Shown here: positions 14,804 to 61,284 of the stretch, one piece after another
Numbering within the stretch: position 1 is the first letter of the stretch
Layout: each line of letters begins with the position of its first letter
Assembly (NCBI GenBank): GCA_050115495.1
Contig: JASFQK010000001.1
Location: forward strand, 192,001 to 256,000
From: Phycisphaerae bacterium
GTDB taxonomy: Bacteria > Planctomycetota > Phycisphaerae > UBA1845 > Fen-1342
Reading direction: 5' to 3'
DNA length: 64,000 nucleotides
Translations under genes and position numbers: made by a program
The notes under the pieces: generated by a model
What the model was told of the DNA's origin: nothing
What the model saw: the letters and a program-made list of their open reading frames with translations, nothing else
Database searches by the model: none

Positions 14804-14906
14804 CTTGTCGCCGGCTGGCCGAGAAAAAATCGCCACAGCGAACCGGGGACGTCCCGGGTCGTATTGGATAAACGGTTCATGGTTTGCGCCAGCGGCTGAC
14901 CCTCGT

Positions 14907-14934
14907 TTGACAACGGATTGTTAGTGCTTACAGT
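14907..14934 (+). promoter_or_regulatory. Sigma-70 promoter of the P1B-ATPase, with an inverted repeat overlapping -35
   Basis: TTGACA-N16-TACAGT; TGACAA-cgga-TTGTTA imperfect palindrome. Confidence 0.5.
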
Positions 14935-15047: not shown

Positions 15048-17021
15048 ATGGCACACGACCATCTGAAGTCCGAGACCGGCCGGGCGACGACGAAACTCGT
15101 CGCCACGCTGCTCGGCGGCGTGCTCGTTCTAATGTCCTTCGTCGCCGACTGGCTATTCCCCAGCGACGCGGCCCCTGGCCAGGGGGGGGCTGCAAACGTT
15201 TACGCGGCCATGTTGGCGGCTGTCGGGGCCCTGCTGCTGGCGGCGCCGTTGTGGGTGCACGCGGCGAAGTGCCTGCTGAGCGGCCACCTGCACATGGATG
15301 AGCTGGTCGCGCTGGCGATCCTGGCCGCCATGGCCCAGGGCGAGTATCAGACGGCGGGTGTGGTGGCGTTCTTCCTGCTGCTCAGCAACCTGATCGAGAC
15401 CCGGACTGCCCTGGGTGCCCGGGCGGCGATACAGAGTCTGATCCGGTTGACGCCGACCAAGGCGCGGCGGCTCCTGCCGGAGGGCGGCGAAGAGGTGGTC
15501 GAGGCCCACGCCTTGCGTCCGGACGATATCGTGCTGGTGCGTCCGGGCGATAATGTGCCGGCGGACGGGCGGATCATCTCGGGGTATTCGACGCTCAACG
15601 AGGCCAACATCACCGGCGAATCGTTGCCGGTGGAGAAGGGCGAGGGAGCGGAGGTCTTCGGCGGAACGAGCAACGTGACCGGCGCGCTGCAGGTGCGGGT
15701 GACCAAGGTCGGCGCCGACACGACACTGGGACGCGTCCAGGAGCTGATTCTGGATGCGGAGCGGACGAAGATCCCGCTGATGCGCCTGATCGATCAGTAT
15801 GCGGAATGGTATACGCCGGTGATGCTGATGCTGGCCGGCGTGGTGTGGTACTTCACGCGGAATCCGAGCACGACGATTTCGCTGCTGGTGCTCGCCTGTC
15901 CGTGTGCCCTGATCCTGGCGACGCCGACCGCAGTGGTGGCGTCGCTGTCGGCGGCGGCCCGACTGGGTGTCTACATCAAGGATGTGAGCAACCTGGAGTG
16001 GGCACGGCGCCTGACGGCAGTCGTGTTCGACAAAACGGGCACGCTGACCACCGGCGAGCTGGCGGTTACGCGCTTGATGCCGGCGCCGGACGTGCAGGCG
16101 GAAGCACTGCTGGGGGCGGCGGCGTCGCTCGAAAGGCTGAGCACGCACCCGGTGGCCCGGGCGATCTCGACGGTCGCCGACCGGGCCCGAGTGCCGTTGG
16201 AGGAGGCGGCGGGTTTCGAGGAAGTCTCCGGCAAGGGTGTGACCGGTTCGGTCGGTGGCGCGCCGGTGCTCGTGGGTCGGCGGACGTGGATCGCCGACCA
16301 GGGCGTGGACCTGTCACCGCTGGCCGACGAGAAGTACCAGGAGCCGGAGGGTCTGAGCACGCTGTACGTGGCCCGCGGCGGTCGCGTGCTGGGCTGGATC
16401 GGGCTGGAGGACCGGACGCGACCGGAGGCGAGCCAGGCGCTCGAAGAGCTGCGGGCACTGGGTCTGCGGCAGCTCATCATGGTGACCGGCGACCGCTGGT
16501 CAGTGGCCCGGCGGGTGGCCAAGGAGATGGGCTGCTCGGATGTGCAGGCCGAGGTGTTGCCGCAGGACAAGCTGGAACTGGTGGACGCCCTGAAGAAGAA
16601 GGGCCACACGGTGGCGGTGGTGGGTGACGGCGTGAACGATGCGCCGGCCCTGGCCGCCGGCAACCTGGGCGTGGCCATGGGGGCGGCGGGCAGCGACGTG
16701 GCGATGAACAGCGCCAGCGTGGCGCTGATGTCGAACGACCTGCGGCGGCTGCCGTTCCTGGTGAGCCTCTCGCGGGAGACGACGAAGGTCATCTGGCAGA
16801 ACCTGATTTTCGGCGTGTCCTTCATCATCGTGGGCGAGATTCTGACTGTGCAGGGGCAGATCGCGCCCATGTTGGCGGCTGTTCTGCACACGATTTCCTC
16901 GGCTGTCGTTGTGTTCAACAGCGCCCGCATGGTGCGCTTCGGCGAGCACATCGAGTCGCACGTGCCCACGCGGCGGGATGTGGAGCAGCCGGTGGGTCGG
17001 GTGGCCCTGCAATCGGTGTGA
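15048..17021 (+). CDS. Heavy-metal-translocating P1B-type ATPase without N-terminal metal-binding domain
   Basis: TGES, CPC in TM, DKTGTLT phosphorylation site, HP motif, GDGVNDAPALA. Confidence 0.95.
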   Translation: MAHDHLKSETGRATTKLVATLLGGVLVLMSFVADWLFPSDAAPGQGGAANVYAAMLAAVGALLLAAPLWVHAAKCLLSGHLHMDELVALAILAAMAQGEYQTAGVVAFFLLLSNLIETRTALGARAAIQSLIRLTPTKARRLLPEGGEEVVEAHALRPDDIVLVRPGDNVPADGRIISGYSTLNEANITGESLPVEKGEGAEVFGGTSNVTGALQVRVTKVGADTTLGRVQELILDAERTKIPLMRLIDQYAEWYTPVMLMLAGVVWYFTRNPSTTISLLVLACPCALILATPTAVVASLSAAARLGVYIKDVSNLEWARRLTAVVFDKTGTLTTGELAVTRLMPAPDVQAEALLGAAASLERLSTHPVARAISTVADRARVPLEEAAGFEEVSGKGVTGSVGGAPVLVGRRTWIADQGVDLSPLADEKYQEPEGLSTLYVARGGRVLGWIGLEDRTRPEASQALEELRALGLRQLIMVTGDRWSVARRVAKEMGCSDVQAEVLPQDKLELVDALKKKGHTVAVVGDGVNDAPALAAGNLGVAMGAAGSDVAMNSASVALMSNDLRRLPFLVSLSRETTKVIWQNLIFGVSFIIVGEILTVQGQIAPMLAAVLHTISSAVVVFNSARMVRFGEHIESHVPTRRDVEQPVGRVALQSV

Positions 17022-17101
17022 TGGTCAATCGGGACGGGACAAGCCGTTTGGGAAGGAAGCGCGGCGGCTCGCCCGGCGACGGCGTGTCGTTGCGCGGCTG
17101 C

Positions 17102-18088
17102 CTAGCTGACTTCGCGTGTCTGGAACATCGTTACGCCGATGGCGAGCACCGCCAGGGCGTAGAGGGCGGCGTAGCCGGCGACGAATGCCACCTGCATGCC
17201 GGGGATCAGCAGCTCCTGGGTCAGCGGGTCGCCGAGCCAGAAGAATTGGAAGTTGGGGATGGCGGCGTAAAGGATCTGGTACAGGGGGCCCTCGGTAACG
17301 AAGCGGCCGAAGAGGTAGTCCGAGTGCAGCCCGAGGATGAACACGCCGGCGCAGGCCGTCAGCGTCAGCACCTGCCCCAGGCGGGTGGCCAAGGCCACGG
17401 CGAAGGCGCACAGGATGAGCACGCCGCAGAACGTGGCCGCCACGGCGTAGAGAAGCTGGCAGTTGCTGAAGGTGGCGTCCTTGGCGAGCGGGTTCTGCAT
17501 GGCCCATTCGGGGCTGATGAACAGGACGACCAGCATGGCGATCGAGGCCAACGGCACTACGAAGGCGGTCAGCGTGCTCGAAAAATGCCAGCCATAGATG
17601 TAATTGGTGAACGTCGCCGCGATCAGGCTGATGAGCACGGCCCCGAGGCCGAAGATGAGCACCGGCTGGTCGTACTTGTCGGCGGCGGTTTCCATCGTGC
17701 CGTGGCGGACCGTGAGGAACAGGGCCAGGCACAGGAAGTAGTAGCCCACCGCGACCGCCCCGGTCACGCCCAGGTACTTGCCCAGGAGGAAGACCGGGCG
17801 GCTGACCGGCTTGGAGATGACGGTCAGGACGGTGTGGCTTTCGATCTCGCGGGTGATGACGCTGGTGGCGCTGAAGACGCTGGCCAGCAGGCCGTAAAGC
17901 ATGAGCGTCGACAGGCTTACGTCGATCATGATCTTCTTGTCGCTGCCGGCGACGAGGGTGAAGGCCGCGAACGCCGGGCTGATGAAGGCCACCCAGAAGA
18001 CGGCGACCCAGAGCAGGACGCCGTAGACGGGCTGGCGGACGGTCTCGGTGAAGGTGTTGGCGGCGATGGCCGTGAGCTTGTTGGGCAT
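17102..18088 (-). CDS. ABC-2 type transporter permease
   Basis: IAANTFTETVRQP, REIESHTVLTVISKPVSRPVFLLGKYLG, multiple TM, ends FQTREVS. Confidence 0.9.
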   Translation of the reverse strand: MPNKLTAIAANTFTETVRQPVYGVLLWVAVFWVAFISPAFAAFTLVAGSDKKIMIDVSLSTLMLYGLLASVFSATSVITREIESHTVLTVISKPVSRPVFLLGKYLGVTGAVAVGYYFLCLALFLTVRHGTMETAADKYDQPVLIFGLGAVLISLIAATFTNYIYGWHFSSTLTAFVVPLASIAMLVVLFISPEWAMQNPLAKDATFSNCQLLYAVAATFCGVLILCAFAVALATRLGQVLTLTACAGVFILGLHSDYLFGRFVTEGPLYQILYAAIPNFQFFWLGDPLTQELLIPGMQVAFVAGYAALYALAVLAIGVTMFQTREVS

Positions 18089-18257
18089 CGGGGTTTACCA
18101 GTATCGGGTTATGGTTGCCACCGCTGGTGGGCGTCGCCAGCCAGGCCGGCCGCCGGTCATTATGCCGGGCGACGGGCAGGTGGACAACAGGGCATACGAC
18201 GGCGGACGGGAGCGGTTCGCCGGCGGCGGGGGCTTCGGGTGATGCGAGAGGTGAGTC

Positions 18258-20738
18258 GTGGCTGAAACGTCCTACACGCGTGCCCGCCGGACGGCTCTGT
18301 ACGGGCTGCTGCTACAGATCATCGCTTTTGGCGGCGTGCTGGTGCTGGGCCAGAGTTCGCTGTCGGTGGCGATGTTCACGCTGGCCTGGTACATCGGCGG
18401 CGGCATTCCGCTGTGGTTCGTCTGTCTGCTGGTTTTCCGCCAGCACGAACTGGTGGCGCTGGAGTCGCTCGACCTCGAAGAGCTCCGGCGGGAGAAGCAG
18501 AGCGCCGGCGGCGGGGAAGCGATCTTCGACGAGGAAGGCGGCGGGGCGCTCGGTTTCCGGGTGGCCGAGACGCGGCTGCGCTGGATGCAGCGTTGGCTGC
18601 TGCCGGCTTTCGGGCTGGTGACGGCGCTGTACCTGGCCGGGATGGGGATGTGGCTCTGGTACCAGGTGAAGACGCTGGGCGTGCTGGGCCGCGGGGAGCT
18701 GCAGAACCTGCCCATCTCGATGATCCTGCTGGGGGTAGGCGTGCTGTTGCTCTTCCTGTTTGCCCGCTACGCGTCGGGGATGGCGCGGGTGAAGGAATGG
18801 CAGCATTTGCGAGCGTGCGGCTCGTACATGCTGGGCAACGCCATCGCGGCGGCCGCGGCGATCATCTGCCTGGGGGTGGCGATCAGTCCGCTGAAGACGC
18901 CGACGCCCGAGCACGTGCTGGCCTACCTGATCCCGGTGGTGATGGTGCTGGTGGCGGCGGAGACGCTGATCAACTTCATTCTGGATGTCTATCGTCCGCG
19001 AACGCCGGGCGTGGAGCCCCGGGCCTGCTTCGACAGCCGGCTGCTGGCCCTGATCGCCGAGCCGGGCGGGATCGCCTCGACGATCGCGGAGGCGATGAAC
19101 TACCAGTTCGGCTTCGAGGTATCGCACACCTGGTTTTACCAGTTGTTGCAGCGGACGTTCGTGCCGCTGCTCGGGGCGGGGCTGGTGATTTTGTGGGCGC
19201 TGACCTGCATGCTGGTGGTGCAGCCGGGGGAGCACGCCATCGTCGAGCGTTTCGGGCGGCAGTTGAACGCCGAGACGCCGCATAAGTGCGGGCTGCACTG
19301 GAAGCTGCCGTGGCCGATCGACGTGGCCCACAAGTACAACACCGGCGAGCTGCACCAGATCATCATCGGCTTCAAGCAGTTTGACGCCGCGCCTCAGGCC
19401 GATAAAGAGCAGACGCTGGACGTGGCCCTGTGGGACGACGTGAAGCACATGGGCCAGCCGCACTTCGACTTCCTGATTCCGGTGCCGCGGCGGGTGGCCG
19501 AGCTGACGATGGCGCGGCCGGCGGAGCCGACGGTGGCCGAGACGCAGCCGACGACGGCCCCGGGAGAGCGGCGGCCGGAAGAGGCCCTGCCGGTCAACAT
19601 GGTGCGGATGGACGTGGCCATCCAGTATCGGATCCGCGAGGATGACCTGGCCGACTACACGGTGAATATCGTGAACGCCCAGGAAACGCTGCGGGACCTC
19701 GCCTGGGAGGAGGTGGTGCGCTACAGCGCGTCCAATGACCTATTCACCCTGTTGGGCGAGAAGTACGCCACGGCCGCGATGGAGCTGCGCGAGCGCATCC
19801 GCCGGCACGTCGAGGAGTTGGACCTTGGGTTGGAGATTGTTTACGTCGGCGTGCAGAACGTGCACCCCGAGCCGGGCGTGTCCAAGGAATTCCGCCGGGT
19901 CGTCACGGCCGAGCAGGAGAAGATCGCCGCCATTCGCGAAGCGATCGTCAAGGAAAACCAGGTGCTCTCTGCCGTGGCCGGCAGCCGGGGCGTGGCCATC
20001 AATCTGGCGCAGGCGATCGATCATATCGGGCCGAACACGACGGCCCTGAACGACGCCCAGGCCGTGCTGAGCACAGCGGACGCTGGCCTGGTCGAGACGT
20101 ACCGGCAGCGCGTGGCCGAGCATGAGGCGGCGCTGCGGGCGGTGGTCGAGGCCGACTGGCGGCTGCAATTGGCCCGGCTGGACAAGCAGCAGGTCGACTA
20201 CGACTTCGACCTGGGCCTGCAGGACGTGGGCGACAAGGCACGGGCCGGCGCAGCGGTGACGGCGGCGGAGGCGGCGCTGGAGGCGGCGAAGGCGACCCTG
20301 ACCGAAGAGTTGGCTGAGGTGGAGACCGCGGCCCGTCAGCAGCTCTCCGAACCGGTGGTGGCTGCCCTTCGCGAAGAGGCCCAGGCCCAGACGGGGCTGA
20401 CCTTCTGGAACGGCCGGTTGCAGCAGTTGCTGCCGGGCGTGCAGGGCGAGGCGGCGGTCGTATTGGCCAAGGCCCAGGCGGAGCGCTGGGCGATCGAGAT
20501 GCGGGCGGCGGCGGAAGTGGCCCGCGTGGACGGCGAACGGGCGGCGTACCGCGCAGCCCCGCGCGTCTACAAGATCCGCAAGTACCTGGAGGTGCTGACC
20601 GCGGGCATCAAGGATTCGCGGAAGTTCTTCCTGGCGTTTGACCCGGGCAACCGGTGGGTGCGCGTGCGACTGATGGCTGAAGAACAGGCCCGCACCGGCA
20701 TCGAGGATATTGAGACCCGCCAGCCGACGCGGCCCTGA
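18258..20738 (+). CDS. Large SPFH/HflK-like protein with polytopic N-terminal membrane domain
   Basis: About 320 aa multi-TM N-terminus; SPFH start VVQPGEHAIVERFGR...GLHWKLPWPID; LGLEIVYVGVQNVHP; long coiled-coil C-terminus. Confidence 0.85.
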   Translation: MAETSYTRARRTALYGLLLQIIAFGGVLVLGQSSLSVAMFTLAWYIGGGIPLWFVCLLVFRQHELVALESLDLEELRREKQSAGGGEAIFDEEGGGALGFRVAETRLRWMQRWLLPAFGLVTALYLAGMGMWLWYQVKTLGVLGRGELQNLPISMILLGVGVLLLFLFARYASGMARVKEWQHLRACGSYMLGNAIAAAAAIICLGVAISPLKTPTPEHVLAYLIPVVMVLVAAETLINFILDVYRPRTPGVEPRACFDSRLLALIAEPGGIASTIAEAMNYQFGFEVSHTWFYQLLQRTFVPLLGAGLVILWALTCMLVVQPGEHAIVERFGRQLNAETPHKCGLHWKLPWPIDVAHKYNTGELHQIIIGFKQFDAAPQADKEQTLDVALWDDVKHMGQPHFDFLIPVPRRVAELTMARPAEPTVAETQPTTAPGERRPEEALPVNMVRMDVAIQYRIREDDLADYTVNIVNAQETLRDLAWEEVVRYSASNDLFTLLGEKYATAAMELRERIRRHVEELDLGLEIVYVGVQNVHPEPGVSKEFRRVVTAEQEKIAAIREAIVKENQVLSAVAGSRGVAINLAQAIDHIGPNTTALNDAQAVLSTADAGLVETYRQRVAEHEAALRAVVEADWRLQLARLDKQQVDYDFDLGLQDVGDKARAGAAVTAAEAALEAAKATLTEELAEVETAARQQLSEPVVAALREEAQAQTGLTFWNGRLQQLLPGVQGEAAVVLAKAQAERWAIEMRAAAEVARVDGERAAYRAAPRVYKIRKYLEVLTAGIKDSRKFFLAFDPGNRWVRVRLMAEEQARTGIEDIETRQPTRP

Positions 20739-20795
20739 GCGGCCGAAGCGGCGCGCGGGCCGGCGGTCCCGCGCGGCGGATGACGAGGAGCAGAG

Positions 20796-21752
20796 ATGAA
20801 CAGGATCGCGGTACCAACGCTGTTGACGGCCGGGGGCGTGGTGCTCCTGCTGTTGGCCTACGCCCTGACGTTCCAGGTGCGCTTCTCCGAAGTGGCGGTG
20901 ACGGAGAGATTCGGCAAGGCGGATGAGAAGAGCATCGTGACCGATCCCGGCCTGTATTGGCGCTGGCCGTGGCCGATCGACAGGGTCACGAAGTACGACA
21001 AGCGTCTGCGCACGCTGGACACGACCGAGGCCGAGGTCAAGACGAAGGACGGGAAGAACGTCGTCATCGGCAACTACGCCATCTGGCGCATCGAGCAGCC
21101 CCTGCAGTTCTACAAGCGGGTGCGGACGGTGGCCAAGGCGGAGGAGGGCCTGCGGGCCCGTATCGCCGATCGCCGCCAGGCGGTCATCGGCAACGAGAAC
21201 CTGTCGGCCTTCGTCAACCTGGACGAGGCGCGGGTCACGGAGAGCTACGACCGCATCGAAGAGGCCTTGCTGAACGGCAAGGGGTTGGAGCCGGGTGGCG
21301 AAACCCGCTCTCTCGCCGAGGGCGTGCTCGAGGATTTCGGCATTCACCTCGAGAAGGTGGCCATCCGTCGCATTTCGCTGCCCCAGGAGACTACGCAGAG
21401 CGTCTTCCAGCAGATGATCGCCGAGCGGCAGAAGGTGGCCGCCGGCTACCGCGAGGAGGGCAAGTCGCGGGCGCAGTCGATCACGGCAGCGGCCGAGGCG
21501 GCCAAGCAGCAGATCCTGGCGTTTGCCCGGACGAAGGCCGAGCAGGAGCGGACCAAGGGCGTGCAGGCCAGCACCCGCGTGCTGGCTCAGATTGAAGCCG
21601 AGGACGTGGAGTTCTTCGAGTGGCTGCGCTGGCTGGACGCCCTGCGCGTCTCGCTGCAGCAGAAGAGCACCATCTTCCTGGACAGCGACTCGGAGCTGTT
21701 CAAGCCCTTCATGGGACCGCTGGCACCGACCTCGCAGCCGGGCAGGGAGTAG
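20796..21752 (+). CDS. SPFH protein, HflC-like
   Basis: One N-terminal TM; RFGK...PGLYWRWPWPI; YDKRLRTLD; TKDGKNV; VFQQMIAERQKVA...REEG. Confidence 0.88.
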   Translation: MNRIAVPTLLTAGGVVLLLLAYALTFQVRFSEVAVTERFGKADEKSIVTDPGLYWRWPWPIDRVTKYDKRLRTLDTTEAEVKTKDGKNVVIGNYAIWRIEQPLQFYKRVRTVAKAEEGLRARIADRRQAVIGNENLSAFVNLDEARVTESYDRIEEALLNGKGLEPGGETRSLAEGVLEDFGIHLEKVAIRRISLPQETTQSVFQQMIAERQKVAAGYREEGKSRAQSITAAAEAAKQQILAFARTKAEQERTKGVQASTRVLAQIEAEDVEFFEWLRWLDALRVSLQQKSTIFLDSDSELFKPFMGPLAPTSQPGRE

Positions 21753-21756
21753 GGCC

Positions 21757-23022
21757 ATGGACGAGCACGGACATTACCCAATGGCAGGCGCCGGCGGCCC
21801 GCCGGAGCCGGCAGGCGATCCGGCACAGCAGTCGTTGGGCAGCGCGCTGCGTTCGAGCTTCGCGATTCTGCGGCTGGTCATCTTTGTCCTGTTGGCGCTC
21901 TATCTGTTGTCGGGCGTCTTCCGGATTCAGCCGGGAGAGCAGGGTATCGTCGCCCGCTTCGGTAAGCTGATGGAGAACCGGGAAACGGGCAAGTTCGTGT
22001 TCACCGAAGGCTGGGTATGGTGGGTGCTGCCCGAGCCTTTCGACGAGAAGATCACGATCTCCGGCAATATCGAGCGCATGACGATCGACACGTTCATGTT
22101 CGCCCGCACTGAGGACGCGATCAGGAACGACACGGACATCGCCACGCTCAAGCCGCGCGGCAACCAGATCAACCCGGGCCGCGACGGGGCCATGCTGACC
22201 GGCGACAAGAACCTCTCCCACGGCTTGTGGGAGGTGGAGTACCGCATCGTCGACGGGGCGGCTTTCGTTACGCATGTGGGCGAGGGGCCCGAGGAGTTCG
22301 CCCCCCTGCTGCAACGGTCGCTGGAGAACTCGATTCTCCGCGAGGTGGCCTACCGCAAGGTGGAGGAGGTCACGCGAACGAAGATCGACAGCGTCGCCGA
22401 CCGCGTGCTGCGGCGCTTGCAGAAGAACCTGGACGCCCTGCACACGGGCGTGGAAGTCGTCAAGACCAACCCCAACGTGATCGTGCCGGCGCAGGTGGCT
22501 CCGGCCTTCACCGAGGTCACCAACGCCGAGAACGAACGCACCCGGCAGGAGCACGGCGCCGAGCAGAAGGCCACAGAGATCCTGAACCAGGCCGCCGGCC
22601 CCGCTCACCGTGCGGTGCTGGAGAAGATCCGGGCCTACGGGGCGGCGCAACTCGCCGGCGCCGAGCCGGAGGAGCTGGCCCGGCTCCTGGCGGAGATCAA
22701 TACGTCGCTGGACACGGCGGAGGGCGAGGTCGCGGTGGCCCTGCGCGAGGCCCGGGCCGAGGCCAACACCGTGCGCGAGGAGATCAACCGCCAGTACCAG
22801 GAATACACCGAGTGGCTCAAGCAGTACCGGGCGCTGCCGCAGGCGACGCTGGTGTCGCTCTGGTCGCAGATGCGCGAGCAGATTCTGACCAACAAGGACA
22901 ACGAGCTGTTCTGGCTGCCGGACAGCAACGTCATTGAGATCCTGGTGAACCGCGATCCGAACCGGGCCATCGAGGCCGAGCGTGAACGCCTGCAGAAGCA
23001 GATGCAGGACCAGGAGCGCTAA
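21757..23022 (+). CDS. SPFH protein, HflK-like
   Basis: One TM; SGVFRIQPGEQGIVARFGK; MLTGDKNL; PAQVAPAFTEVTNAENE. Confidence 0.88.
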   Translation: MDEHGHYPMAGAGGPPEPAGDPAQQSLGSALRSSFAILRLVIFVLLALYLLSGVFRIQPGEQGIVARFGKLMENRETGKFVFTEGWVWWVLPEPFDEKITISGNIERMTIDTFMFARTEDAIRNDTDIATLKPRGNQINPGRDGAMLTGDKNLSHGLWEVEYRIVDGAAFVTHVGEGPEEFAPLLQRSLENSILREVAYRKVEEVTRTKIDSVADRVLRRLQKNLDALHTGVEVVKTNPNVIVPAQVAPAFTEVTNAENERTRQEHGAEQKATEILNQAAGPAHRAVLEKIRAYGAAQLAGAEPEELARLLAEINTSLDTAEGEVAVALREARAEANTVREEINRQYQEYTEWLKQYRALPQATLVSLWSQMREQILTNKDNELFWLPDSNVIEILVNRDPNRAIEAERERLQKQMQDQER

Positions 23023-23038
23023 GCCGGCGCCCCCGAGG

Positions 23039-24205
23039 ATGCCCGTGAACACCCCGTCGATCATTTCCGCCGTCGGCCTGACCAAGGTCTTTCGGGACTT
23101 CTGGCGGCGGGCCCGCGTCAAGGCCGTCAACAGCGTCGATCTGGAGATTCAACCCGGCGAGATCTTCGGCCTGCTGGGCCCCAACGGTTCGGGCAAGAGC
23201 ACGACCATCAAACTCATTCTCGGCCTGCTGCACCCCACGCGTGGCCGCGTCGCCGTCTTCGGCCGACCGCCGGACGACGTCCGCTCCAAGTCGCGCATCG
23301 GCTACCTGCCGGAAGAGTCGTACCTCTACCGCTTCCTGAACGCCCGCGAGACGCTGGACTACTACGGCACACTGTTCCGCATTCCGCGCGGCGAGCGTCG
23401 CCGGCGAACCGAGGGGTTGCTGGAGATGGTCGGCCTGAGGTCGGCGGCCCGGCGGGCGGTGGGCGAGTATTCGAAGGGTATGGCCCGGCGCATCGGCCTG
23501 GCCCAGGCCCTGGTGAACGATCCCGACCTGCTGATTCTCGACGAGCCGACCAGCGGTCTCGACCCGATCGGTGCCAAGCTGGTCAAGGACATCATCGTGC
23601 GCCTCGGCCAGCAGCATAGGAAGACCATCCTCCTTTCGAGCCACCTGCTGGCCGACGTCGAGGAGGTCTGCGACCGGGTGACGATTCTCTACGGTGGGCG
23701 GGAGCAGGTGAGCGGGCGCATCTCCGAAGTACTGGCGCACCGCGACAAGACGCAGATTCTCTGTGACCGGCTGAGTCCGGAGACGATCGCCGCCGTCACC
23801 GACCTGGTGCAGCGGCAGGAGGGCAAGACGCTCGAGGTGTCCACGCCGCGCGATCGGCTCGAAACGCTGTTCCTGCGGATCGTGCGCGAGGCGCACGCTC
23901 ACAAGGTGGAGACGGCGGGTTCGGCGGTGGCCGGCGAGATCGCCTCGTTCCTCGGTGAGAGTGAGCAGGGCAAGGCCGTGCTGGAATCGCTGACCAAGGT
24001 CGAGCCGGTCGAGACCGGGCCGGCCGAACCCGAGCCGGTGCCGTCCGGTACCGATGCGACGCTGCTGGGCGAGCTCGTGGCCCCGCCGCCGGCGCCGAAG
24101 CCAGCGGCCGGGCCGGCGGTGCCTGCGCCGCCGCCACGCGGTGACGTCGACCGCACCGTGCTCGACGAGCTGACCGAAGACGAGGGCGGCGGGGGCGGGG
24201 CATGA
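23039..24205 (+). CDS. ABC transporter ATP-binding protein with Pro/acidic C-terminal extension (start may be GTG 23045)
   Basis: GPNGSGKST, YSKGMARR, LILDEPTSGLD, SSH. Confidence 0.95.
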   Translation: MPVNTPSIISAVGLTKVFRDFWRRARVKAVNSVDLEIQPGEIFGLLGPNGSGKSTTIKLILGLLHPTRGRVAVFGRPPDDVRSKSRIGYLPEESYLYRFLNARETLDYYGTLFRIPRGERRRRTEGLLEMVGLRSAARRAVGEYSKGMARRIGLAQALVNDPDLLILDEPTSGLDPIGAKLVKDIIVRLGQQHRKTILLSSHLLADVEEVCDRVTILYGGREQVSGRISEVLAHRDKTQILCDRLSPETIAAVTDLVQRQEGKTLEVSTPRDRLETLFLRIVREAHAHKVETAGSAVAGEIASFLGESEQGKAVLESLTKVEPVETGPAEPEPVPSGTDATLLGELVAPPPAPKPAAGPAVPAPPPRGDVDRTVLDELTEDEGGGGGA

Positions 24206-25593
24206 GAAACACGCTGGCCATCGCCCGGCTGATGATCGCCGAGGGCGTCCGCATGCGGATCGTCCTGGTGTTCATCGTCGTGCTGGTGTTCATCGTGCTC
24301 CGGCTGCCGTTCACGCTGCGCGGGGACGAGACGGTCTCGGGGCAGTTGCAGACGTTCCTGGCGTATTCGCTGGGGGCGGTGAGTATTCTGCTGGGAGTGG
24401 CCTGCGTCTTTCTCTCCTGCGCTACGCTGACGGGGGAGATCAAGAGCTTCACCATCCACCTGCTGGTGACCAAGCCGGTCTCGCGGTTCGAGATTCTGCT
24501 CGGCAAGTGGCTGGGCATCAACGTGCTGCTGCTGACGCTCGTGGCGGCCAGCGGGGTAACCATCTACGGTTTCGCCCGCTTCATCAAGTCGCGGCCGGTG
24601 GCCTTCGAGCGCGACGCGGTGAACCTGCGGGACGTCGTGTGGCGGGCTCGCGTGGCGGCCGACCCGACACCGCCGCCGGAGCTGGAAGACCAGGCCCGCG
24701 AATGGGTGCGGTCGCAGGTCGGTCAGGGACAGCATTTCGCCCGCGGGGAGGCCTTCGCCTACGCCGAGCGGCTCAAGGCTTTGCAGAGCGAGTGGCGGAC
24801 GCTCAATCCCGGCCAGGCGCGGGCGTATCTGTTCGAGAACCTGATCCCGCCGCGCTCGGCCGATGCGGTGATCCAGGTGCGCTACCGCGTGCGGGGCGTG
24901 AACCTCCAACTCGACCAGATGGTGCCGGTGGCCTTCGCTTTCGCCGATCCGGACGATCTTGAGCCGCTCAGCGAGTGGCATGACGTCCGGGAGCGGTCGG
25001 CGGATCTGCACCAGTTCCTGGCGAAGGGGCAGCCGGTCATCAAGGACGGCTGCACGGCGCTGCTGGTCGGCAACCGGGGCCTGCCGCCGTACGAACGCGT
25101 GTCGTTTCACATCGAGGAGGAGGACGGCCTGCAGATCCTCTACAGCGTGGGGACGTTCGAGGAGAACTTCGTCAAGACGCTGTTGATGGTCTACGCCCGG
25201 CTGGCGTTTCTGAGTGCCGTGGGGCTGTTCTTCAGCGTATTTGTGTCGTTCCCGGTGGCCTGCCTGTGCGCGTTCACGTTTTACCTGATCTGCCTGGGCA
25301 TGCCCTACTGGCTCGAGTCGGTCGGGGCGAACCTGGAATACTGGACCGAAGGGGTGGACCCCTACGGCCGATACGGGCCGGCGATCCGTATGGTGCTCGT
25401 GCCGATCATGCGCTTCGTCTTCCCGAACTTCGGGGCGTACGACGGCGGGCAGTATCTCATCGACGGGCTGTACATCAATTACGGGCTGCTGTGCAAGGCC
25501 CTGGGGCACACGCTGCTGTACGGGATCCTGCTGCTGCTGTTGCCCGGTTGGCTCATGTTCCGTTCGCGAGAGATCGCGGAGGTGACCGTGTGA
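24202..25593 (+). CDS. ABC-2 type permease with large extracytoplasmic loop
   Basis: IARLMIAEGVR, EIKSFTIHLLVTKPVSRFEILLGKWLG, ends FRSREIA; ATGA overlap with the ATPase. Confidence 0.9.
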   Translation: MRNTLAIARLMIAEGVRMRIVLVFIVVLVFIVLRLPFTLRGDETVSGQLQTFLAYSLGAVSILLGVACVFLSCATLTGEIKSFTIHLLVTKPVSRFEILLGKWLGINVLLLTLVAASGVTIYGFARFIKSRPVAFERDAVNLRDVVWRARVAADPTPPPELEDQAREWVRSQVGQGQHFARGEAFAYAERLKALQSEWRTLNPGQARAYLFENLIPPRSADAVIQVRYRVRGVNLQLDQMVPVAFAFADPDDLEPLSEWHDVRERSADLHQFLAKGQPVIKDGCTALLVGNRGLPPYERVSFHIEEEDGLQILYSVGTFEENFVKTLLMVYARLAFLSAVGLFFSVFVSFPVACLCAFTFYLICLGMPYWLESVGANLEYWTEGVDPYGRYGPAIRMVLVPIMRFVFPNFGAYDGGQYLIDGLYINYGLLCKALGHTLLYGILLLLLPGWLMFRSREIAEVTV

Positions 25594-25636
25594 GCGCGGG
25601 CTGGCGGCGAGCGTACAGGCGCGGGAGGGTGGACCG

Positions 25637-27832
25637 ATGATGCGTCCGCGCATGATTCAGCTTACCGCCCTGGTGGCCTGCGTGGCCCTGGTGTACGGCG
25701 CGGCGCAGTTCGTGCCCGCGGTGAACAAGGGCCGGCAGGCCCTCAACATGTACGGCAGCGCGGACGTGCTGGAGAACGCGCCGCCGGAATACGCTTTCGC
25801 CATTCAGGCCTTCGGGGCCTTCCGCAGCATCATCGTCAACATCGCCTTCATTCGGGCGGAGACGTACAAGGAGGAGGGGCGCTACTACGACGCCATGCAG
25901 CTGGCCTCGTGGATCTGCCGCCTCCAGCCGCATTTCCCGTCGGTGTGGGAGTTCCAGGCGTGGAACATGGCCTGGAACATCTCGGTAACGACCTACACGG
26001 CGGAGGAGCGTTGGAACTGGGTGTACAACGGGGTGCGGCTGCTGCGCGACGCCGGCATCGAGGCCAACCCGCGGTCCGTGAATCTCTACAAACAACTCGC
26101 CTGGATCTTCAACAACAAGATGGGCGAGAACATGGACGACTTCCACTGGGAGTACAAGCGGAACTGGGCCTGGCGCATGCACCTGGTCCTCGGTCCGCGG
26201 CCCAGCAGCCTGGGAGCGTACACACCCGAGGAGAAGTTCGAGCCGGTCACCTTCGACGTCGCTACCGACCCGCTGCTGGAGATGGCCCGCACGACGGCCG
26301 AGCAACAGGAGGCTCGCCGGCAGCAGCGCCGGGAAGAACTGGGCGTCCCCTACCGCACGACTCGTAGCCTCGAGGAGCGACTGCAGGAGATTCCGCTGGA
26401 CGTACCCAGCGACGAGGGGCCCCTGACGCCGGCCCAGATTCGCCAGCGGGTGATCCGCGACTATCTCCAGCGCATCGCCAACGCGCCGGCGAAGCTGGCC
26501 GGGCTGTACGAAGCTTATCCCGAGACGCGCGACATGGTGGCCCGGCTGCGCGAGATCGGCGTGGAGATCACGGACGATACGCTCACCGAGGACACGTACT
26601 GGTACGACGGCAAGCTGGCCCAGACCTTCTTCAGCCGCTACCGCGGGTTACTGGATACACCCTCGCTGCGGGAGACGATCAGCGCCGAGGCGGACGAGGC
26701 CGCGGCAGTCGAGGCGGCGGCCCGGGAGCGCCTGGACGAGATCCTCGGGGCGCGGGCCGGCAACCCCGCCGGGCGGGCCCTGGTCCGCTTCCTCCAGCGC
26801 AAAGTGCTGCTCGAGGTCTACAAGCTCGATCCGGCGGCGATGGTCAAGCTGGTCGAGCACTTCGGGCCGCTGGACTGGCGCGTGGTGGACACGCAGAGTC
26901 TGTACTGGGTGACGCAGGGTCTGATCCGCGGCGGTGAGACGATCAGCAACTTCCAGAACGACAAGACGAACACGGCGCGCATCCTGTTTTTCAGCCTGCG
27001 CAACCTGTTCCTGCGTAACCGGATCACGTTCGAACCGAACCCCGAGGACGTGAACAAGTCGTACATCAACTTCTCGCCGGACATTGACTTCGTCGAGCCG
27101 ATGCACCGGGCGTTCGTCACGTACGCGCCGATGATTGACCCGGACCCCGGCAACGCCAACAACGCCGGGGAGACCTTCCGTAGCGGACACGTGAACTTCC
27201 TGCGGGAAGCGATTCGCATGCTCTGGTTCTCCAACCGTGTCGATGAGGCGCAGAAGTACTACACGTACCTGAACCAGCACTACGGCATTCGCCCGGACGG
27301 CTCGGTCGAGACGCGGTACCAGATGCCGCTGCGGGACTTCGTGGTGTCGACGTTCTACGGCAACATCGAGACCCCGCGCGAGACCGGGCGGCTCATCGCC
27401 GATCTGCTCTATCGGGCGTATGAGGCCCTGGCGGACGAGGACGCGGCCACCTACAACCAACTGGTGAGCAAGGCGCTCGAGTTCCACACGCAGTACACCA
27501 TCGAGCACAAGACACAGACCACGCCGCGGATGGCGCTGCGGCCGTTCCAGGACTACCAGATCGACATGTTCCGCGAGTGGTTCAACGTGCCGGTCCTATC
27601 CTCGACGATCACCATTCATAAGGCACACCTGTGGCGCGTGGCTCCGCCGACGCTGAAGCAGTGGGTCTATGACGACCTGATCGGTGTGTTGTCGGCGGAG
27701 TGCGCAGCGTGGAATTTCGACCCGGCCAAGGCGTTCCCCGAGCCGCCGGGCATGGCCGAGTTCCGCGAGGCCCACCCGCGCCGCGAGGTGGATCGCCAGG
27801 AGACCGACGTCGAGACCGTGCCCGAGCCGTAG
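25637..27832 (+). CDS. Conserved-looking membrane-anchored helical (TPR-like) hypothetical protein
   Basis: N-terminal TM; LQPHFPSVWEFQAWNMAWNISV...ERWNWVYNGVRLLRD; typical codon usage; RBS GGAGGG. Confidence 0.8.
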   Translation: MMRPRMIQLTALVACVALVYGAAQFVPAVNKGRQALNMYGSADVLENAPPEYAFAIQAFGAFRSIIVNIAFIRAETYKEEGRYYDAMQLASWICRLQPHFPSVWEFQAWNMAWNISVTTYTAEERWNWVYNGVRLLRDAGIEANPRSVNLYKQLAWIFNNKMGENMDDFHWEYKRNWAWRMHLVLGPRPSSLGAYTPEEKFEPVTFDVATDPLLEMARTTAEQQEARRQQRREELGVPYRTTRSLEERLQEIPLDVPSDEGPLTPAQIRQRVIRDYLQRIANAPAKLAGLYEAYPETRDMVARLREIGVEITDDTLTEDTYWYDGKLAQTFFSRYRGLLDTPSLRETISAEADEAAAVEAAARERLDEILGARAGNPAGRALVRFLQRKVLLEVYKLDPAAMVKLVEHFGPLDWRVVDTQSLYWVTQGLIRGGETISNFQNDKTNTARILFFSLRNLFLRNRITFEPNPEDVNKSYINFSPDIDFVEPMHRAFVTYAPMIDPDPGNANNAGETFRSGHVNFLREAIRMLWFSNRVDEAQKYYTYLNQHYGIRPDGSVETRYQMPLRDFVVSTFYGNIETPRETGRLIADLLYRAYEALADEDAATYNQLVSKALEFHTQYTIEHKTQTTPRMALRPFQDYQIDMFREWFNVPVLSSTITIHKAHLWRVAPPTLKQWVYDDLIGVLSAECAAWNFDPAKAFPEPPGMAEFREAHPRREVDRQETDVETVPEP

Positions 27833-45542: not shown

Positions 45543-45616
45543 TGCGCCAGACGGGATTCGAACCCGTACTTGGAGGATTTTAAGTCCTCTGCCTCTGCCA
45601 TTTGGGCTACTGGCGC
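45543..45616 (-). tRNA. tRNA-Leu(UAA), 74 nt, short variable loop, CCA not encoded
   Basis: GCGCCAG acceptor stem; anticodon arm GAGGA-CTTAAAA-TCCTC; T arm ACGGG-TTCGAAT-CCCGT; discriminator A. Confidence 0.93.
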
Positions 45617-61210: not shown

Positions 61211-61284
61211 GGTGGCGTGCCCGAGTGGTCTAAGGGAGCGGATTGCAAATCCGTTTGTCATGGGTTCGAATCCCATCGCCACCT
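61211..61284 (+). tRNA. tRNA-Cys(GCA), CCA not encoded
   Basis: GGTGGCG/CGCCACC acceptor stem; GCGGA-TTGCAAA-TCCGT anticodon arm; ATGGG-TTCGAAT-CCCAT T arm; U73. Confidence 0.95.

Follow-up and report, generated by a model that had tools for sequence, protein, structure and literature searches.

The whole stretch of DNA analysed here (the window) comprises 64,000 nucleotides (nt) of a Phycisphaerae bacterium (assembly GCA_050115495.1, contig JASFQK010000001.1), and the locus under study occupies positions 15048..27832. It consists of eight adjacent genes that encode a P1B-type ATPase (the pump), an inverted permease of the ATP-binding cassette (ABC)-2 type (permease 1), three SPFH proteins (a first HflK-like, an HflC-like, and a second HflK-like subunit; the K-C-K trio), an ABC ATPase, a second permease (permease 2), and an anchored protein of likely α-helical repeats (the helical protein). 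Re-derivation of the open reading frames (ORFs) reproduced the layout given in a preliminary description of the locus, including the strands, the 4-nt gap between the HflC-like and second HflK-like genes, and the ATGA overlap of the ABC ATPase and permease 2 genes; for the ABC ATPase, the ORF finder gave an alternative GTG start at 22982, which extends the protein to 407 amino acids (aa). The closest named homologues for the locus are from Phycisphaerae and other Planctomycetota. Judging from sequence comparisons, the trio probably serves as a scaffold for a metal-type pump.

Table 1. Positions of the eight genes and of nearby features in the window (TM, transmembrane helix)
Feature	Position	Strand	Remarks
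Small basic protein, 75 aa	14364-14591	+	TIGR04137
GAAC-N16-CGTA motif, pump upstream	14839..14863	+	Conserved
Sigma-70-like promoter of pump gene, TTGACA-16-TACAGT	14907..14934	+	10/12 consensus matches
P1B-type ATPase (pump), HmtA-sister clade	15048-17021	+	657 aa
Permease 1, ABC-2/NosY-like, ~8 TM	17102-18088	-	328 aa
Divergent intergenic region	18089..18257	.	Sigma-70-like site 18187-18159 (-) and GAAC-N16-CGTA (-)
First HflK-like subunit, polytopic SPFH	18258-20738	+	826 aa, GTG start
HflC-like subunit, one TM	20796-21752	+	318 aa
Second HflK-like subunit (third SPFH gene), one TM	21757-23022	+	421 aa
ABC ATPase, NosF/DrrA-like	23039-24205	+	ATG start, 388 aa
Permease 2, 6 TM	24202-25593	+	463 aa
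Anchored protein, likely alpha-helical-repeat	25637-27832	+	731 aa, N-terminal anchor

Loci of relatives (L numbers; genomes are given as G numbers) were fetched in three sets, 40 around the HflC genes of relatives, 60 of the 97 with other HflC-like matches, and 40 around matches of the helical gene, and were mapped with family profiles. Loci with a system-type first subunit, 56 in all, were taken as system loci, and in 31 of them (L082 included, after correction of an ORF overlap) all eight genes stand together, in five gene orders. The order of the window is kept in 22 loci, five have a co-directional run (permease1-K-C-K-pump-ABC-permease2-helical) in which the pump comes after the trio and ahead of the ABC genes, two have permease 1 last, and two have one gene flipped; in the other 25 system loci, a contig or fetch boundary truncates the locus or no pump adjoins it. 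This clustering exceeds chance. Within the taxonomic order of the window (its own genome and 40 relatives), where the eight-gene form is nearly universal, the HflC-like gene was found in 39/41 genomes and the pump in 38/41; both genomes without HflC are also without the pump, and the third pump miss is a contig end. Among 161 Planctomycetota genomes, a system-type first subunit (E < 1e-120; next match 1e-70) occurs in 28, all of which have the long form of the helical protein (E < 1e-50; 38 genomes in total). A pump of ≥800 bits is present in 22 of the 28 and two more have a pump cut by a contig end, while the remaining four, from one family, have only an unlinked and divergent pump of ~700 bits; such a pump of ≥800 bits without a first subunit occurs in a single Planctomycetota genome (1340 contigs). 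In a second phylum, Verrucomicrobiota (the phylum of G201; 60 genomes), the first subunit occurs in 25 genomes, with the pump within ~5 kb in 25/25 and, at threshold, in 0/35 of the others; the helical gene is linked in 20 of the 25, and the eight-gene form is present in about two fifths of this sample. The co-occurrence of the pump and ABC genes with these SPFH clades, which the preliminary description had expected, is thus borne out in both phyla. Two system-type trios or two system-clade pumps per genome were seen in G047 (L084, L096), G041 (L186, L187), and G144 (L117, L188).

The first subunit contains a CDF-like membrane domain (residues ~1-260), a seventh TM, an SPFH domain (320-562), and a long helical stalk; PF01145 was detected in all three SPFH proteins, which also gave profile matches to HflK/C structures in the PDB. 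Predicted models point to a six-helix CDF membrane fold in the first subunit, the atlas structures giving TM-scores of 0.66 to CDF-HflK fusions and 0.52 to CDF; hhalign gave 88% to six free CDFs and 96% to two CDF-HflK fusions, and a weak Pfam CDF match was present in four of 34 first-subunit members. The metal site of CDF proteins consists of His/Asp residues in TM2 and TM5. These ligands are gone in the first subunit, in which the H..D motifs of L068 and the free CDFs align to WYIGG and GSYML. As judged from hydropathy, seven helices precede the SPFH domain and the basic loops lie on the N-terminal side, which would give a periplasmic SPFH domain. Natural fusions of the first HflK to a transporter occur in other planctomycete trios: to a whole P1B-ATPase in one ORF (L072, 9678-12698 (-), 1007 aa; L109, 6515-9499 (+), 995 aa), a pattern that recurs in G077, G150, and G191; to a CDF domain (L068, 7671-9491; L107, 5708-7585); and to an ArsP/SO_0444-like permease (L070, 4011-5906; L088, 847-2739; L110, 7654-9486), the latter two types being above the Pfam cut-offs in a scan of 17 proteins. 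Transporter-bearing SPFH trios form a family, with three unrelated metal-transporter families filling the first-subunit slot. These fusions give strong indirect support to a pump-serving cage; the fused P1B pumps branch outside the system pump clade and therefore show a recurring partnership, not the history of this pump. We infer that the CDF-like domain of the first subunit may be a transporter domain that has lost transport and now docks a separate pump.

The HflC-like subunit passes the HflC equivalog (TIGR01932, 149.3 versus a cut-off of 134.4) and matches E. coli HflC structures (E 1e-61; PDB 7vhp, 7wi3, 9cz1/2), and both HflK-like subunits are below the TIGR01933 cut-off of 159.4 (84.3 for the first and 92.2 for the second). 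The trio could be the HflKC of this lineage, binding FtsH and controlling the turnover of the pump or permeases, or the pump could supply zinc to FtsH. In line with this, the 318-aa protein passes the HflC cut-off, the genome of the window encodes FtsH on contig C50, with a score over that of the family cut-off, and gave no further match to HflC, and papers on Pseudomonas aeruginosa (PMC11761036 among them), in the text available, assume an FtsH-modulator role for the trio PA2437-39. E. coli hflK-hflC lie in the miaA-hfq-hflX operon with no ftsH beside them. The statement that no ftsH is in the window is true and uninformative, because the genome has ftsH elsewhere and E. coli hflK-hflC are likewise unlinked from it; the lack of a nearby ftsH was therefore rejected as evidence. 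The trees point away from canonical HflKC. In 31 rows (IQ-TREE), the system HflC grouped with that of HmtA-type trios (trio and pump without the ABC part, as described below for P. aeruginosa) with SH-aLRT 99, and placing it with canonical HflC was rejected (p-AU 0.00055; quick tree, LG+G4). In a 182-row SPFH FastTree, each subunit grouped with its HmtA-type counterpart (0.85-0.89), and the system subunits were separated, with moderate support, from those of E. coli and of 15 plain hflK-hflC pairs. Moreover, G128 holds the system together with a plain hflK-hflC pair (L103, L116), P. aeruginosa holds both types, 84/161 Planctomycetota genomes have no HflC-like match at 1e-30, and ftsH is beside none of the system loci, its single hit being in a locus with the short ABC triad described below. 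The HflK arginine contacting FtsH is given as Arg191 in the part of PMC12048511 consulted; position 191 is Ala in the E. coli HflK sequence fetched, so that the numbering of the paper did not match, and E. coli Arg193 is kept in 15/15 HflKs of the pairs and in 0/24 of either system HflK, with Arg185 partly kept. By this test, the trio appears HflK/C-like by fold and outside the canonical FtsH-modulator clade, in keeping with the separate branching on which the preliminary description depended, and an HflKC role is improbable.

The pump scores 548.9 bits for TIGR01525, above the cut-off, and contains TGES189, CPC284, DKTGT328, HP367, QN584, and His614, together with GDGxND. Of the pumps counted, 91% retain Cys284 and likewise 91% His614; the CPC motif is not strict (CPC 21, TPC 2, CPT 2, CPG 1; n=26), and the best pump of one family has VPA for CPC and no His in TM8 (2 examined). 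In a FastTree of 57 rows, the pumps of the system group together (0.994), with the HmtA-type pumps as their sister clade (0.972) and with ZntA, CadA, CopA, and SilP apart; the tree includes two non-P1B ATPases from the genome of the window, selected by motif (ownC7, ownC10), whose long branches lower the trust in deep nodes. The P1B-2 signature consists of Lys in TM7 and Asp in TM8, and the P1B-1 signature of Tyr-Asn in TM7 with Met and Ser in TM8 (PMC4285229). At the P1B-2 (ZntA/CadA) positions the window pump has Ile and His, and it is without the P1B-1 (CopA) residues. Compared with the P1B-6 motifs (SCA with HNxxT or N-X18-H-N-X-(S/T); the sequences of FezB and CtpC were outside the tree), it has CPC and not SCA, and HTISS with no upstream Asn, sharing only the His. 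With none of these subclass signatures and a variable CPC, the metal is not readable from the sequence. The L091 pump is ZntA-like. Cysteine-less pumps of the same broad clade, with VPA or GPS for CPC and unlinked to a trio, were seen in L184 and L185 (G073, G187) and in L189 and L190 (G102, G083).

Several candidate metal-ligand residues are conserved in the SPFH and helical proteins. In the first subunit, His536 is kept in 23/24 system rows, 10/10 HmtA-type rows, 2/2 P1B-fused rows, 3/3 CDF/ArsP-fused rows (L068, L070, and L107, counted apart as they are HmtA-type by length only), and 10/11 other trios, and is present in 0/15 HflKs of the canonical pairs and absent from E. coli HflK; W392-x4-H397 is kept in 23/24 system and 10/10 HmtA-type rows. 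In the second HflK-like subunit, His155 is found in 24/24 system rows. In the helical protein, His170 is kept in 24/26 long forms and 0/9 short forms, and belongs to a DDxH-type motif (D167, H170) that is conserved exclusively among long forms. These residues bear on an explanation without transition metals, in which the system would, for example, shape or sort inner-membrane domains and the metal site of the pump would have drifted. These bacteria have folded inner membranes. A non-metal role would suit the variable CPC and TM8 residues, the lost CDF ligands, the absence of a conserved metal-regulator box noticed upstream, and the near-universal single copy in the order (39/41 and 38/41), which is housekeeping-like rather than that of a resistance island. 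It is quite unlikely in view of the retention of Cys284 and His614, the histidines that mark transporter-linked first subunits, and the three metal-transporter families found in the same slot. The locus points to four single changeable residues, His397, His536, His155, and His170.

The ABC ATPase has an intact Walker A motif, YSKGM signature, DEP, and H-loop, and its best bacterial match in the PDB is NosF (E 1.3e-45), which ranks after eukaryotic ABCA proteins. Permease 1 gives weak matches to PF12698/PF12679 and a single PDB match, NosY, and its homologues bear the JGI name 'ABC-type transport system involved in multi-copper enzyme maturation permease subunit'. Permease 2 scores 36.2 for PF12679, above the cut-off, and its TM3 and TM4 are separated by a large soluble domain according to hydropathy. 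Homology between the permeases extends along their length (probability 99.4), which fits a heterodimer. The helical protein has no Pfam, NCBIfam, or significant PDB match; 437 homologues were found among 7999 candidates scored. Clusters with TPRs are among its neighbours in the atlas, and one short homologue scores above the TPR_14 threshold. 'IRE (Iron responsive element) family protein', the automatic name of one atlas cluster, was rejected as a label for it, and the literature search gave no paper joining iron responsive element, Planctomycetes, and ABC transporter. A fixed triad of ABC ATPase, permease 2, and short helical form stands without trio or pump in 22/24 short-form loci, taken around weak matches of the helical gene, and 10/38 genomes have the long helical form and permease 1 but no trio, so that the ABC part is not dependent on the cage; seven of these ten genomes are without a pump at 1e-150, and the pump thus follows the trio, not the ABC genes. 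While the preliminary description rightly noted an ABC system, its 'exporter' is a module of its own, which also occurs where there is no trio, and appears more NosFY-like than a plain exporter. The locus might accordingly hold two linked but separate machines, in which the trio scaffolds the pump for uptake or efflux, as for hmtA, and the ABC triad exports or positions a lipid, lipoprotein, or membrane protein in an unrelated envelope job, with the linkage reflecting shared regulation or a shared pathway. Each module being found alone speaks for such a division, as do the short triad followed directly by the gene of a second primary ion pump, a membrane H+-pyrophosphatase, in five loci (L164, L166, L167, L170, L176; hand-picked ORFs), the distance of ~930 kb that separates the helical gene and the trio within one contig of G226, the upstream motif common to pump and permease 1 in the family of the window, and the high scores of the ABC ATPase to lipid-moving ABCA proteins. 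We regard it as rather unlikely, because all 28 trio-bearing Planctomycetota genomes have the long helical form, the adjacency of the trio and the ABC genes persists where the pump has moved away, and the His170 motif and the permease-1 orthologue accompany the long form.

Other neighbours of the ABC module were observed in individual loci. An adenosine deaminase-family gene follows the helical gene of long-form modules without a nearby trio in L146, L151, and L153. A Cu/Zn superoxide dismutase gene, a possible client, follows the long-form module of a genome without a trio, seen once (L150, 13399-13977 (+)). A likeness of the ABC module to the Myxococcus PilGHI / Geobacter Xap ABC system, in permease, ATPase, and TPR partner, is a tentative lead; the pilin gene context is absent, with the pilin N-terminal motif in one of the 40 loci scanned (L144-L183).

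The pump and permease 1 genes are convergent and have in common a sigma-70-like site and the GAAC-N16-CGTA motif, which we take to be an ECF-sigma-like promoter. This motif lies within 300 nt upstream of the pump in 18/19 same-family loci and of permease 1 in 17/21, versus 0/21, 2/21, and 1/18 for the first SPFH, ABC, and helical genes, respectively, used as controls; the sigma-70-like site of the pump is visibly kept in many same-family loci. The shared elements suggest joint control of pump and permease 1. Outside the family of the window the contrast fades (8/18 and 7/27 vs 7/32), and a regulon defined by the motif was rejected, with 207 occurrences genome-wide versus 188-223 at other spacings and no enrichment. 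Upstream alignments revealed promoter-like motifs only, with no conserved metal-regulator box noticed and no Zur motif model run. An imperfect palindrome over the pump -10 element (14917-14932 region (+)) recurs in several same-family loci. The locus is flanked by rnc, the 75-aa small basic protein, and an acylphosphatase; the TIGR04137 protein is kept upstream in the family of the window even where the pump has moved, and is probably outside the system. The Rfam scan of the whole window gave two tRNA genes (45543-45616 (-) and 61211-61284 (+)), with no riboswitch or other family. An RNA run (0.17 of words; contigs on 14/30 bins, low depth) cannot show transcription or operon structure and was not used as evidence.

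Based on the gene content, the linkage, and the intact motifs of both ATPases, we propose that the trio forms a cage for the pump, and that a NosFY-like ABC part and the helical protein would use ATP to pass the pumped metal to periplasmic clients; taken as a whole, this reading is close to an even call. The three SPFH proteins would form a mixed K/C/K cage on the inner membrane, at its periplasmic side, as family structures suggest. Its client is likely the P1B pump rather than FtsH, docked by the ligand-less CDF-like domain, whose slot is occupied in other trios by a P1B, CDF, or ArsP transporter, as the fusions and trees indicate. The released metal, most likely zinc or copper, may then be bound by His397/His536, His155, and Asp167/His170, in view of their conservation. 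By analogy, the permease heterodimer and the ABC ATPase might act on the helical protein in the way that NosD is moved by NosFY, a step that we put forward with some doubt; the helical protein would be a NosD analogue at most, and the NosFY analogy is the weakest step. A general class of bacterial SPFH-trio metallation chambers, each with a metal transporter (P1B, CDF, or ArsP) carried or docked by the first subunit and with the histidines of that subunit catching the ion, and with a NosFY-like ABC motor in Planctomycetota and Verrucomicrobiota that loads it into periplasmic proteins within the cage or at its mouth, is conceivable and on balance doubtful; in that case, eight conserved genes would specify an organelle-like periplasmic compartment independent of FtsH.

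A number of observations weigh against this proposal, besides the independence of the ABC part, the loose CPC motif, and the FtsH-bearing genome with a single HflC-like match already mentioned. At least 13 system loci have no pump adjoining the trio although the sequence extends far enough to show one; those genomes of the order that were checked carry a pump 58-67% identical at another place, and the three tested belong to the system clade. The idea of a cage serving a metal pump, advanced in the preliminary description, is strengthened by the transporter fusions of the first HflK and weakened by the pump lying elsewhere in many Phycisphaerae genomes. HmtA-type trios occur without the ABC part, and HmtA is described as an importer in the available text of citing papers, which would reverse the direction. 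The helical protein gave no NosD match and is not a NosD-like β-helix, and permease 1 matches NosY only weakly (E 0.067). The system loci have no conserved client gene. Finally, the genomes are kin and not independent, so that the counts, made with no tree correction, overstate the support.

Comparison with known systems places the proposed cage among several precedents. The E. coli HflK/HflC-FtsH cage has homologous HflC and HflK folds, with the SPFH domains being predicted as periplasmic here; it differs in having two subunits and not three, in belonging to a separate clade, and in its client, which is here likely the pump, and E. coli HflK differs from the polytopic first subunit with its CDF-like domain and two special histidines. 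The locus names a candidate client of an SPFH cage besides FtsH. NosDFY takes copper delivered by NosL and, changing shape with the use of ATP, transfers it to N2O reductase, according to the part of PMC13685413 consulted. The ABC module resembles NosDFY (PDB 7o0y) in that NosF and NosY are the matches described above and a periplasmic partner is encoded alongside, and is unlike it in having two different permeases, a helical partner in place of a β-helix, and loci that contain neither nosZ nor nosL. Mycobacterial effluxosomes (CtpC/PacL; PMC13460109) and ferrosomes (FezB; bioRxiv 10.1101/2020.01.10.902569), as far as the accessible portions of these reports go, likewise involve P1B pumps that depend on partner membrane proteins and act in clusters or compartments, and share the His in the last signature helix; their scaffolds are PacL or GxxxG proteins and not SPFH proteins, and the window pump lacks the P1B-6 motifs.

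The closest precedent is P. aeruginosa PA2439-PA2434, in which the part comprising the SPFH trio and the P1B-ATPase is already known as a gene cluster: a K-C-K trio (PaFlo5/6/7 = PA14_33070/33080/33110) with the P1B-ATPase HmtA (PA2435), differing from the present system in having no ABC genes or helical protein, while the pump is upstream or unlinked here. The preliminary description of an uncharacterised combination therefore holds for the eight-gene set, of which no description was found in the literature (subscription journals and supplements lying mostly outside the search), and does not extend to the trio with its pump. In the available texts, PA2439/38/37 (HflK/HflC family) and PA2435 (HmtA) show a 5.6- to 14-fold increase when znuA is mutated (PMC4542158), the cluster is more abundant in zinc-depleted cells (PMC11761036), and Zur binds the PA2439 promoter, with hmtA mRNA not repressed by zinc (PMC8531726). 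A 2026 survey of P. aeruginosa SPFH proteins (PMC13086221) places PaFlo5-7 apart from HflKC with a patchy spread and describes slight phenotypes of the triple mutant; its accessible text names no client for the trio and reports no metal test. Trios with a pump and without ABC genes also occur in planctomycetes and on proteobacterial plasmids, where they are annotated as hflK-hflC-SPFH-P-type ATPase. The plasmid clusters of HmtA layout (Paraburkholderia, Burkholderia, Rhizobium) were assigned to the P. aeruginosa type by gene order and annotation, the P. aeruginosa proteins being outside the trees; they are sister to the proteins of the window gene by gene, and the top-ranked plasmid match of its pump sits in such a cluster. 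On one Paraburkholderia plasmid (L076, 1-5703), the HmtA-type cluster comes after zinc ABC uptake genes and a gene for the copper chaperone PCu(A)C. The hmtA/PaFlo5-7-type clusters of plasmids and planctomycetes share W-x4-H and His536 with the present system, and the N-terminal domains of the first subunits align with 96% probability. As the four-gene core is also present in P. aeruginosa, the core claim of a trio serving a P1B pump is directly testable there.

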